This document shows, piece after piece, positions 28,034-28,702 of a stretch of 64,000 bases of DNA. The notes below the pieces were generated by a model. It did no database searches. It saw only the letters and a program-made list of their open reading frames with translations, and had not been told where the DNA came from. The DNA comes from Escherichia coli (lineage in GTDB: Bacteria > Pseudomonadota > Gammaproteobacteria > Enterobacterales > Enterobacteriaceae): the NCBI RefSeq assembly GCF_016903815.1, contig NZ_CP069973.1; one strand, written 5' to 3'. Position numbers and translations under genes: made by a program. Position 1 is the first letter of the stretch. Every line of letters begins with the position of its first letter.

Positions 28034-28120
28034 TTTTTTTGCGCTGACTTCAGTTATTTAACAGAACAGTGCCTGGTAGTAACAACAATAATTTGCCAAG
28101 ACAAATAAGTAAGACAAACT

Positions 28121-28152
28121 CAGACACGCTCATACTTGAGTCGTGTCTTTTT
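28121..28152 (+). terminator. probable zinT terminator
   Basis: Hairpin AGACACG...CGTGTCT followed by TTTTTTATT. Confidence 0.55.
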
Positions 28153-28702
28153 TATTATGTCTGTAGAAAAAAAATGCGAAAAAGGCGAACAATAAATACA
28201 CAACTCAGCCATACAGACTGGCAGCGCAAATGTTTCCAGGAGCAAGTCATCTGTCATGGTAAAGCTAACCAGAAATATAGGTTAATTTTGGTGTTTAAAC
28301 CTTTTTTACTTGTTAGTATGATACAAAGGCTTTCAAAAAAGCTGGGAAATTCAACAACTCTTGGAAATTATGGACTTTGTCCCGCGGCTTTAATCTGACG
28401 GCCGCGTTCCTTTTTTGACTCAATTATTGACCCCTTCTCTACGCAACTTCAGTTCCCGCCAGCAACTTTGCGGCAGTTTCATAGGATCAATGTCTAAAAG
28501 AATAATGGTGACCGATAAGAAAACGACTGAATAACTGTAGATTTTCGCTCGAAACCTTCCTGTCAGCTCCATAGCGAATCAAGTGCTGAATGTCACAGTA
28601 TCGAACAGAAAACAGTGACGATCTAACCCTTCAAGAATATTCTACGATTGTTCTGTTTAGGAAAAGCAAGGCGGGAAGTCAGGAGATAAGTCATTGATAA
28701 AG

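Follow-up and report, generated by a model that had tools for sequence, protein, structure and literature searches.

What occupies the spacer between zinT and serU in an Escherichia coli genome that has no yodB there, and is a small RNA encoded in it? The question arose from a stretch of 64,000 nucleotides (contig NZ_CP069973.1 of assembly GCF_016903815.1), the whole of which was analysed and is called the window below. An earlier note, made from the letters alone, had described the interval as about 670 bp of non-coding DNA that replaced yodB and, carrying two terminator-like hairpins, formed a candidate small RNA (sRNA) locus. All of the features that it listed exist where it had placed them, but the frame into which they were put was partly wrong. 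The interval is best explained, with somewhat better than even confidence, as a yodB-less spacer made up of the zinT 3′ untranslated region with its terminator, a phage-derived sRNA gene, and a flank of the serU attachment site.

Layout of the zinT-serU spacer

The interval and its borders are organized as follows (window positions):

27383-28033, + strand: zinT coding sequence, the left border (ORF list; named ZinT in the RefSeq records of the identical strain 7/2 and of K-12)
28034-28255, + strand: haplotype-specific spacer of yodB-less genomes, zinT 3′ untranslated region (blastn breakpoints against K-12)
28122-28153, + strand: hairpin 1 and U run, intrinsic terminator of zinT (fold; conserved after zinT in relatives)
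28258-28424, + strand: likely phage-derived small-RNA unit, full extent of the homology to the prophage family (phage 683R6, SerU-LTIIb, E. coli prophages)
28425-28702, no strand assigned: serU-proximal flank, common to the attP region of serU-integrating lambdoid phages (96-97% identity to ev099, mEp332 and PhiR70_1)
28703-28792, - strand: serU, tRNA-Ser(CGA), the right border (ARAGORN and Rfam)

The spacer measures 669 bp from the end of zinT at 28033 to the edge of serU at 28703. In blastn comparisons, homology to K-12 breaks exactly at the zinT stop codon and returns at 28256, so that 222 bp (28034-28255) occupy the place of 995 bp in K-12, namely yodB and its flanks. The remaining 447 bp (28256-28702), including hairpin 2 and the TATGAT hexamer, are present in K-12 as well, at 96% identity, downstream of yodB. 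The supposed replacement by about 670 bp thus shrinks to the 222 bp in which the two arrangements differ. The absence of yodB itself stands: the best tblastn match in the entire 64-kb window reaches only E=0.56, and neither a coding sequence nor a remnant was found there by tblastn or by blastn of the K-12 yodB block. In K-12 the small-RNA unit sits 122 bp downstream of yodB, and the sRNA candidate is therefore unrelated to the absence of that gene, to which it had been tied. A repeat of the REP or ERIC type was ruled out, since the interval occurs in a single copy per genome.

Hairpin 1 was found at 28122-28148, followed by a U run (predicted near 28121-28152), and folds with -15.3 kcal/mol (z=-3.8). 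It does not belong to the sRNA locus, as first thought, and is zinT's own Rho-independent terminator, conserved in three lineages at a distance of about 90 nt from zinT. E. albertii carries the same hairpin about 90 nt past the zinT stop codon with a compensatory change from A-U to G-C, and K-12 has it at the same distance with a broken U tract. The segment 28034-28255 is the zinT 3′ untranslated region, and hairpin 1 is the terminator within it.

At the opposite end, homology of the flank to the phages runs 62 bp into serU, to 28764. In ev099, mEp332 and PhiR70_1 this sequence has an AraC-type regulator or int on one side and a tail-fibre assembly gene on the other, and it constitutes attL of prophage SerU-LTIIb. 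serU is a documented prophage site, and positions 28425-28702 are its attachment-site flank, common to the phages that integrate there. No convincing hairpin that could act as a minus-strand serU terminator was found beside the tRNA, whose trailer has unusually little structure (z=+2.05).

A structured RNA family of lambdoid prophages

Units homologous to 28258-28424 were found in phage vB_EcoS-683R6, in prophage SerU-LTIIb and at six prophage loci of other E. coli genomes. Matches to the phage-type unit come from a total of 369 genomes, and at least 120 viral contigs carry homologous units. Beyond these borders the homology to the prophage family is not significant, though similarity is apparent by eye. 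Wherever annotation was available among the cases examined, the unit is flanked by Q or phage tRNAs on one side and by the holin/lysis genes on the other, antisense to the late genes. No phage genes surround the window copy, which has zinT and serU as its neighbours, and we read it as a relic beside a prophage attachment site, a member of the family by descent and not by context. No name for a prophage late-region sRNA family of this kind was found in the literature; it is defined here by covariance model R1 and alignments A4 and A5. In the window, the unit is composed of these elements:

28273-28322, + strand: promoter-like region (consensus scan; blocks conserved in 57 family members)
28273-28286, + strand: conserved upstream block AAATATAGGTTAAT
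28294-28299, + strand: candidate -35 element TTTAAA, followed by a 17-bp spacer
28317-28322, + strand: candidate -10 element TATGAT
28327-28416, + strand: predicted sRNA of about 90 nt (5′ end placed about 7 nt past the -10 element; 3′ end mapped in K-12)
28327-28329: predicted 5′ end, equivalent to K-12 2,043,092-2,043,094
28329-28342, + strand: weak 5′ stem-loop GCUUU-CAAA-AAAGC at the position of the family's SL1 (sequence; alignments A3/A4)
28343-28371, + strand: single-stranded region UGGGAAAUUCAACAACUCUUGGAAAUUAU, candidate seed (alignments A3/A4; fold)
28372-28382, + strand: SL2, GGAC-UUU-GUCC, nearly invariant in the family (99% of cells paired)
28383-28416, + strand: hairpin 2, the SL3 terminator (stem 28383-28389 with 28400-28406, 10-nt loop, then UUCC-U6, the six U at 28411-28416)

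Model R1 was built from 26 prophage copies alone, with the window copy left out. It recovers window 28310-28423 on the + strand over its full length (model positions 1-107) with 60.9 bits and E=3.7e-12, the only match in the 64 kb. Paired cells make up 93.9% of the family alignment, versus 33-52% when the partners are slid, and seven pairs change on both sides, with a covariation score of 0.237 against 0.091 at most. The sixth pair of the terminator occurs as C-G (n=22) or U-A (n=8) and is never unpaired, and SL1 covaries among the prophage copies. SL2 and SL3 are predicted independently by RNAalifold, and G-U pairs favour the + strand of the unit (28 versus 12). The 3′ module of the family consists of GGAC-UUU-GUCC, followed directly by a CGCGGYN...NRCCGCG terminator and a U tract, and all three are found at window 28372-28416. 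The unit, from its promoter-like region to its terminator, belongs to a covarying structured RNA family of lambdoid prophages.

Promoter-like region, RNA anatomy and conservation

The -10-like hexamer that had been noticed near 28317 occupies 28317-28322, and TTTAAA precedes it by 17 bp. As a consensus match alone this is not above chance (9 sites against 4.5 +/- 2.2 expected). Positions 28294-28322 hold no variable site among 10 diverse E. coli alleles, and in the 57 family members the promoter blocks and their spacing are constant and the spacer sequence varies. All of the upstream blocks of the family (AAAT..GGTTAAT, TTTAAACC and TTAGTAnTAT) are present in 28273-28322 at fixed spacing, with TATGAT as the -10 element. 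For the prophage copies, a 32-codon ORF that runs on the other strand confounds the conservation of the '-35/-10' region. From a sigma-70-type promoter of this make-up, with TTTAAA and TATGAT 17 bp apart, transcripts would begin near 28327-28329, and we infer that 28273-28322 acts as an independent promoter from which the candidate sRNA would also be expressed in this strain.

The resulting RNA of about 90 nt would begin with a weak stem-loop, followed by some 29 unpaired nt, the small GGAC-UUU-GUCC hairpin, and the terminator with its U6 end at 28416. The chromosomal SL1 is weak and A-U rich, pairing as GCUUU/AAAGC or, in the model alignment, as UUUC/GAAA, so its register is uncertain; the family type is GUCUCC-loop-GGAGAC. 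The single-stranded region likewise departs from the prophage consensus CUUAUUAUUCUUCAU, and could function as a seed. Hairpin 2 and its T-tract, expected near 28383-28417, were found at 28383-28406, followed by UUCC-U6 to 28416 (-11.6 kcal/mol, z=-2.2).

With an identity of at least 95%, the unit was found in 5417 of 5426 genomes (99.8%), once in each. Promoter-like region and RNA together hold 4 variable sites in 123 bp, compared with 28 in 324 bp of flanks (10 alleles; p=0.06), which suggests, marginally, that the unit is conserved above its surroundings. Neither the K-12 reference nor any other E. coli record examined annotates the unit. Searches of Rfam with the interval and the prophage copies gave nothing beyond tRNAs, one REP-like match below threshold and noise; covariance models matched no Rfam family to the sRNA locus, and the unit is absent from Rfam 15.

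Evidence for an RNA in K-12

The transcript of roughly 90 nt ending at the second hairpin, which the earlier note had thought conceivable, gains support from a mapped 3′ end and from recovery with Hfq in K-12, alongside its membership in the prophage RNA family. A Term-seq 3′ end at K-12 2043181 (+) corresponds to window 28416, the last U of hairpin 2 (Adams 2021 supplement). It was classed as 'orphan', a class that takes in long 3′ UTRs, and is listed in two of three condition tables, being missing from the first, with low scores of about 2000 (Adams 2021). Hfq RIL-seq lists 'yodB.serU.IGR' with chimeric fragments from both exponential (39) and stationary phase (33) (Bar 2021 table). This RNA is always second in the Hfq chimeras and has a U tract of 6, and its sRNA classifier scores of 0.010 and 0.046 fall under the published cut-off of 0.1 (Bar 2021). 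The spacer RNA thus associates with Hfq in K-12, at low RIL-seq counts, and its expression is low.

Binding to Hfq would occur through the 3′ hairpin and U tail, and the RNA would most likely act in trans by base-pairing via its single-stranded stretch. The sole chimera partner in exponential phase has the same statistics as the row for the ompF coding sequence (Bar 2021 table), and, to judge from these matching values, the partner appears to be ompF, making it a putative target. Pairing between the two was searched for and not obtained above background: whole-RNA duplex folding gave only meaningless long duplexes, and in a windowed scan the best predicted ompF duplex (-18.5 kcal/mol) was equalled by 70% of control segments.

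Elsewhere, the EPEC RIL-seq supplementary tables hold no RNA labelled serU, zinT or yodB, although names in them may be locus tags. Kim 2012 has no entry for the zinT-serU region, and full-text literature searches on the spacer name and on the conserved sequence returned no paper. In the literature found, the unit is known only as an 'orphan' 3′ end and as a low-scoring row of a supplementary table.

Inert relic or working gene

The unit is likely a real, unannotated, phage-derived sRNA gene, and 28258-28424 may be described as a lambdoid prophage relic that would still work in that capacity. The strongest challenge, which we regard as unlikely but to be taken seriously, treats the segment as decaying prophage DNA whose hairpin merely stops upstream transcription, that of yodB in K-12 and zinT read-through here. 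The RNA ends and chimeras would be 3′ UTR by-products devoid of regulation. Hairpin 2 is the first strong terminator 3′ of yodB in K-12, where it may also end the yodB mRNA, and the K-12 RNA could be just the 3′ end of that message. Its low abundance, the few chimeras and the sRNA score under the cut-off all fit such a view, as do the lack of a convincing target pairing, a conservation only marginally above the flanks, and the loss of the core of the unit in E. albertii. However, the sole upstream gene of yodB-less genomes, zinT, has a strong terminator of its own 230 bp earlier. Promoter-like blocks, SL2, terminator and U tract have moreover stayed intact despite the decay of the opposite-strand ORF, the unit has been kept in 99.8% of genomes, and the RNA takes the second place in every chimera, as bona fide sRNAs do.

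A more ambitious version of the sRNA-gene reading joins two propositions and is doubtful as a whole. The chromosomal RNA would be a domesticated core-genome riboregulator acting with Hfq on host mRNAs, with ompF as first candidate in parallel to MicF and IpeX; and among its relatives in prophages, an antisense sRNA whose 5′ seed can be exchanged would be paired with an overlapping late-strand gene of 32 codons, the two making up a modular system. If true, these relatives would represent a new lambdoid pair of sRNA and small protein, possibly setting lysis timing or similar to a type I toxin-antitoxin system.

The same small ORF underlies a further alternative that we consider improbable, in which the 32-codon late gene of the prophages is controlled in cis by the overlapping antisense RNA, after the manner of a type I toxin-antitoxin pair or a late-gene timing regulator. 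The chromosome would then have kept the antisense half only, idle or re-used. In the prophage copies this ORF starts right past the complement of SL2 and is intact in about 100 of about 133 (33 unique intact versions; pooled pN/pS 0.39), always with the unit antisense to the late operon, and it is dead in all chromosomal copies, which have ATA for ATG and a stop at codon 7. Yet its variable sites are spread evenly over the codon positions (16/13/15), and in several lineages one-base indels inside SL1 disrupt the ORF but spare the hairpin. The predicted peptide belongs to no Pfam or PHROG family and is not hydrophobic like type I toxins.

Origin of the yodB-less haplotype

The full-length yodB-less spacer is found in 2281 of 5426 complete E. 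coli genomes (42%). Judging by sequence comparison, the yodB-less form is probably the older arrangement, because E. albertii likewise lacks yodB and is collinear with it across both breakpoints. The notion that yodB was lost and replaced is thus probably backwards. Positions 28034-28255 are significantly homologous to the part of the E. albertii spacer that adjoins zinT (z=11 in a local alignment), versus a likeness to K-12 that is confined to the hairpin (z=7).

The yodB-less form is linked to the neighbouring yersiniabactin island (HPI). For an ST410 clone that acquired the HPI, fyuA was reported as present and yodB as absent, which we read as an allele swapped along with the neighbouring island and not deleted. 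Presence or absence of yodB goes back to an old exchange between two alleles of the zinT-proximal spacer, an exchange that travels with the yersiniabactin island, and not to a recent deletion.

A deletion scar, with yodB excised here and the 669 bp left as the remnant of a K-12-type region, is on these alignments largely refuted and retains very little credence. It accounts for the missing gene and for the right-hand 447 bp, which are the K-12 yodB-serU spacer. The left 222 bp, however, are no subset of the 995-bp block of K-12 (no blastn match at E<=1), which only the zinT hairpin resembles, and both the identical collinear layout of E. albertii and the ST410 case as read above speak against an excision. 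Of the objection that the earlier note had raised against itself, a deletion scar carrying the native yodB terminator, the scar falls and the possible role of hairpin 2 as terminator of yodB in K-12 survives.

The interval encodes no protein. As had been stated, its sole ORF of at least 60 aa (28069-28398) has no Shine-Dalgarno sequence. It codes for 109 aa from a GTG, and neither it nor the five smaller ORFs have a Pfam match. That it, or a 26-aa ORF that runs from the ATG at 28319 into the hairpin loop, might be real has practically no weight and is rejected, for, although both frames are present, both are without a Shine-Dalgarno sequence, the longer one spans the haplotype breakpoint and zinT's terminator, the conserved 3′ module is read in different frames in chromosomal and phage copies, and the ATG is missing in most family members (alignments A3/A4).

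Two points of general interest follow. K-12 is the genome most thoroughly searched for small RNAs, yet the unit is unannotated there, and the link to a prophage family now supplies its structure, its origin and a probable promoter. It would provide a clear case of a phage regulatory RNA that outlives its prophage beside a tRNA attachment site and becomes fixed in the species. The two-allele swap, in turn, corrects the tempting misreading of the absence of yodB as a recent deletion.

Comparison with known RNA systems

AgvB and AsxR (Tree et al. 2014, PMC4104026; RF02702 and RF02703) resemble this family in position and architecture. Both groups are lambdoid, are encoded antisense to the late transcript in the moron region, downstream of Q/PR′, and combine a conserved 3′ part (small stem-loop, terminator and U tail) with a variable 5′ part and Hfq binding. 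AgvB and AsxR measure 51-60 nt, whereas the window RNA is about 90 nt long, has a 5′ stem-loop, and is chromosomal, outside any prophage. Identity is excluded by the lack of sequence or covariance-model similarity: the two Rfam models have no match in window 27000-30000 (E<=1) or in copies from prophages (scanned at E up to 5 and at E up to 1), and as a positive control AsxR was found in Sakai Sp5 at 88.1 bits.

The Pas sRNAs of EPEC (PasA/PasC, PasB, PasD; Pearl Mizrahi 2021, PMC8550237; Zhu, Shabalina and Storz 2026 preprint) are Hfq-dependent and also come from lambdoid prophages. Like this family, they adjoin the holin/lysozyme operon, TerB and phage tRNAs, and have variants that share the 3′ end and differ at the 5′ end. 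They are accessory, in contrast to the chromosomal copy found in 99.8% of E. coli genomes. Four Pas probe sequences and a 49-nt PasA fragment (E2348/69) are absent, with up to 4 mismatches allowed, from the window and from all family loci, so that identity is rejected as far as these partial Pas sequences reach. PasD/STnc100 lies nearby on the other strand in one family locus.

IpeX, reportedly described in 2006 by Castillo-Keller et al. in J Bacteriol, is said to be a 3′ UTR RNA of the DLP12/PA-2 porin gene nmpC/lc. It reportedly lies in a lambdoid late region, opposes the late genes, and upon overexpression lowers OmpC and OmpF. A parallel lies in the effect of IpeX on OmpF and the apparent exponential-phase chimera partner of the spacer RNA, ompF, as deduced from table values. 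No homology between the two was found: comparison with quuD-nmpC and nmpC-essD of DLP12 (blastn word size 7, 8 kb) gave chance matches only.

Finally, the 3′ UTR-derived sRNAs CpxQ and SdhX provide a model for the situation in K-12, where the RNA may likewise share its terminator with an upstream mRNA, that of yodB, and could be made by processing or from an internal promoter. The window departs from this type in having no yodB and a nearest upstream gene that is self-terminated. The unit also has promoter-like elements of its own, and these are common to the free-standing copies in phages.

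A probable small-RNA gene in the zinT-serU interval

The 669-bp interval 28034-28702 and its borders comprise the following features:
27383-28033, + strand: zinT, left border of the interval
28122-28148, + strand: hairpin 1, followed by a U run
28258-28424, + strand: candidate small-RNA unit with the promoter-like sequence TTTAAA-17-TATGAT
28383-28406, + strand: hairpin 2, followed by UUCC-U6 ending at 28416
28703-28792, - strand: serU, tRNA-Ser CGA, right border of the interval

Past serU the order is mtfA, asnT and then the integrase of the yersiniabactin island (HPI). This integrase, adjoining asnT (30010-30936), is frameshifted; in E. 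coli strain 7/2, which matches with 100% sequence identity, it is annotated as a pseudogene and the gap has no RefSeq annotation. All features described in the earlier note were found at their positions: the TATGAT hexamer, the 109-aa ORF and both hairpins with T tracts.

Hairpin 1 (folding energy -15.3 kcal/mol, z=-3.8) lies about 90 nt past the zinT stop. Its counterpart in E. albertii occupies the same place and shows a compensatory change from A-U to G-C, and that of K-12, also at the same place, has a broken U tract. Hairpin 1 is the intrinsic terminator of zinT and no part of an sRNA. The idea of a candidate sRNA locus is supported only for the second hairpin, which is backed by a K-12 3′ end, Hfq chimeras and a prophage family. 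On the zinT side, msrQ and zinT are separated by a palindromic, REP-like element (27125-27190), for which Rfam naRNA4 gives matches on either strand that fall short of the gathering score (35.8 and 23.1 bits vs 59.5), and the palindrome TGTTATATGTTACAATATAACA just 5′ of zinT (27320-27350) resembles the Zur box expected for zinc-regulated zinT. GC content across zinT and the whole spacer (27200-28700) is 32-44%, far under that of typical E. coli coding DNA and consistent with horizontally acquired DNA.

Hairpin 2 (-11.6 kcal/mol, z=-2.2) coincides with an RNA 3′ end in K-12. Term-seq places an end of class 'orphan' at K-12 position 2043181 (+), present in two of three condition tables (Supplementary file 1, Adams et al. 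2021, PMC7815308); the sequence flanking this end is exactly hairpin 2, and the end falls on the last U of U6, window 28416. The K-12 RNA was also recovered in Hfq chimeras, being listed as 'yodB.serU.IGR' in a re-analysis of Melamed 2016 Hfq RIL-seq data (Supplementary Table 1, Bar et al. 2021, PMC8175672), where it has 39 chimeric fragments and a single partner in exponential phase, and in stationary phase 33 fragments and two partners. According to its score it is the second RNA of the chimera in every case, with a U tract of 6, and its classifier sRNA scores of 0.010 and 0.046 are under the 0.1 cut-off (PMC8175672). The exponential-phase partner has 15 interactions and a score of 0.094324, identical to the ompF CDS row; these matching table values suggest that the partner is ompF, and predicted pairing between the RNA and ompF is at background level. 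A full-text literature search found the RNA of the zinT-serU or yodB-serU spacer named in no main text, and the K-12 reference annotation holds nothing at the hairpin 2 unit.

A family of prophage RNAs

A 46-bp match to phage vB_EcoS-683R6 leads to a homologous unit there, extending from the upstream blocks through the terminator. Homologous units also occur in the serU-integrated prophage SerU-LTIIb, in six prophage loci from other E. coli genomes and, by motif search, in at least 120 viral contigs; of 5426 genomes, 369 have a blastn match to the phage-type unit, which in some is the chromosomal copy alone. In every annotated case, the Q antiterminator or a phage tRNA cluster is to one side of the unit and the holin/lysis genes are to the other, and the late genes run on the opposite strand. 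Family alignments contain the blocks AAAT..GGTTAAT, TTTAAACC and TTAGTAnTAT, conserved and at fixed spacing with variable spacer between them, and a 5′ stem-loop. The single-stranded region reads CUUAUUAUUCUUCAU in most phage copies and differs in the chromosomal copy and a 'type II' variant, the stem-loop SL2 (GGAC-UUU-GUCC) is almost invariant, and the 3′ end is formed by a terminator and then a U tract.

The unit in the window belongs to this family, whose stems covary, and has its upstream blocks and 3′ elements, with a weak A-U-rich candidate for the 5′ stem-loop. Across 30 sequences, standard pairs fill 93.9% of pair cells vs 33-52% with slid partners, seven pairs show changes on both sides, and terminator pair six is C-G in 22, U-A in 8 and unpaired in none. 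RNAalifold independently predicts both 3′ stem-loops, and G-U pairs (28 vs 12) favour the RNA strand over the late strand. A covariance model built solely from 26 prophage copies, with the chromosomal copy left out, matches the window copy full length at 28310-28423 (60.9 bits, E=3.7e-12) and has no second match in the 64-kb window; no family homology was found outside 28258-28424.

Variants of the unit were also seen. After many of the prophage copies comes another 3′ module (GGACTTTGTCCCACGAG...CTCGTG plus U7; 1575-1615 in prophage locus L094, with equivalents in L101 and L097), and the SL2-plus-terminator module therefore stands in tandem. The 'type II' variant (viral contigs L132 and L141) keeps only this module, with a different promoter and 5′ region, and its single-stranded part AAAUUUUUCAACUAUCU resembles AAAUUCAACAACUCU of the chromosomal copy. 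The ybcV-ybcW region of K-12 DLP12 (locus L095, 7848-7939, minus strand) gives a weak match to the family model (18.9 bits, E=0.063), which could be due to chance or to a copy in an advanced state of decay.

Proposed function and alternatives

These data are probably best read as a small-RNA gene of phage origin with a sigma-70 promoter, an RNA of about 90 nt, Hfq association and action in trans. Transcription would start near 28327-28329, in the window strain as well, and the RNA would end at 28416; Hfq would bind through the terminator hairpin and U tail, and a single-stranded stretch of about 29 nt would serve for the action in trans. The main rival, an inert relic in which hairpin 2 only terminates upstream transcription, is a serious if rather doubtful reading. 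The promoter-like TATGAT match, taken alone, is no commoner than chance expectation, and among 10 alleles the variable sites number 4/123 in promoter and RNA vs 28/324 in the flanks, a marginal difference (p=0.06). The chromosomal copy is found once per genome in 5417 of 5426 genomes, always with at least 95% identity. E. albertii is without about 110 bp of the unit, which begin with the -10 hexamer and take in the U tract, flanked by two CCTTTTTT repeats that are direct repeats in E. coli; because the phage copies carry the whole unit, this absence is read as a deletion in E. albertii. The small-RNA reading would add an unannotated, probably functional sRNA of clear origin, with low expression and, in ompF, a candidate target, to a very well-studied genome.

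A further alternative arises from a 32-codon ORF on the late strand of the prophage copies, opposite the RNA (L094, 1405-1620; L097-L102, about 1500-1760). It starts right after the SL2 complement, spans the 5′ half of the RNA and the promoter, and has the consensus MKNNKYWPPSGDMFILLSFRSGLNxQINLNFR. About 100 of about 133 prophage copies have the ORF intact (pooled pN/pS 0.39), its variable sites are evenly distributed over codon positions, several lineages have indels within the 5′ stem-loop that break the frame and keep the hairpin, and the peptide has no match among Pfam or PHROG families. It confounds the reading of phage promoter-block conservation as promoter function, and an sRNA/small-ORF antisense pair is possible in the prophages. 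Every chromosomal copy has a dead ORF (ATA at the start position, stop at codon 7) and intact RNA-strand elements. That the chromosomal unit is an orphan antisense half of such a pair is an improbable reading.

The yodB-less allele

K-12 homology ends exactly at the zinT stop codon and restarts at 28256, 122 bp 3′ of the yodB stop in K-12, and 222 bp in the window stand where K-12 has 995 bp. yodB was not found anywhere in the whole window, which bears out its reported absence. The claim that new DNA had replaced it was mistaken, as only these 222 bp differ and the remaining 447 bp, hairpin 2 and TATGAT among them, are common to K-12 (96% identity). Of 5426 complete E. coli genomes, 2281 have the full yodB-less spacer; in the others the spacer is of the K-12 form or serU is disrupted. 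E. albertii, likewise without yodB, is collinear over both breakpoints with the haplotype of the window (local alignment z=11); in strain NBRC 107761 (locus L010, 4254-4817), zinT is followed by a 564-bp spacer and serU. Because of this collinearity, and because the 222 bp are no subset of the K-12 block, the yodB-less form is probably the older one, and the deletion scar that the earlier note had considered is, on these alignments, very unlikely. Least credible is a protein-coding interval, since no ORF of the gap matches a Pfam family.

Both spacer alleles travel with the neighbouring HPI, as seen in 60 genomes sampled in even steps through the ranking and in a published ST410 clone that gained the HPI and is without yodB. 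Sampled yodB-less genomes comprise 14 with and 2 without the HPI, and yodB-bearing ones 2 with and 23 without, two of these 23 having a different integrase at asnT; the link is strong (Fisher p=4e-7), for rows that are not phylogenetically independent. In another 18 rows, about 30% of the sample, the serU flank is broken by an inserted element. Different genes adjoin serU in the other Escherichia clades sampled (loci L007-L009 and L005), such as shiA-amn-tRNA-Asn-yeeO in place of zinT in cryptic clades, and zinT or yodB was not found within 5 kb upstream of serU at any locus examined from other genera. Upstream of serU, Escherichia sp. MOD1-EC7003 carries an island that encodes a nucleotidyltransferase-like protein of 423 aa and a partner of 186 aa, which may form a defence system. 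A hotspot of rearrangement and insertion, serU is a documented site of the Sp14 and Stx1d prophages.

The serU-proximal flank

The 340 bp at 28425-28764, made up of the last 278 bp of the spacer and a 62-bp 3′ part of serU, have 96-97% identity to a segment carried by phages ev099, mEp332 and PhiR70_1 (L085, 3501-3840; L084, 2051-2388). This segment sits between an AraC-type regulator or integrase and a tail-fibre assembly gene, that is, in the attP region; the attL of prophage SerU-LTIIb reads yodB, then 447 bp, then a 62-bp tRNA fragment. This attP-attB homology of the serU-integrating lambdoid phages is unusually long; the phages may have taken it up from the host, or the flank in the host may be left over from a phage. 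The sRNA-family homology has its left edge no more than about 3 bp from the yodB breakpoint and ends on the right exactly at the start of the attP homology, and these coincidences point to a spacer that is a mosaic of phage-derived pieces. The serU trailer (28580-28702, minus strand) is unusually unstructured (z=+2.05), and an intrinsic terminator is not obvious there. Within it, a 10-bp palindrome without mismatch, AGAATATTCT, is conserved in both E. albertii and the phages and may serve the att region as a protein-binding site.

Relation to known prophage sRNAs

Closest in design and position are the anti-sRNAs AgvB and AsxR, which are likewise lambdoid, downstream of Q and antisense to the late transcript, with a conserved 3′ and a variable 5′ part. 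However, Rfam models that recover AsxR in Sakai Sp5 find nothing at 27000-30000 of the window or in prophage copies of the present family. The Pas sRNAs likewise lie near holin, TerB and tRNAs, but their published probe sequences are absent from the window and the family loci. IpeX has its orientation and a porin connection in common with the spacer RNA, but no sequence similarity. A prophage copy might already be among published candidate sRNA lists, such as the EcOnc list of Tree 2014. The spacer RNA and its relatives are classed here as a new family of a known kind, that of prophage-derived, Hfq-associated sRNAs, with a member in the core genome.
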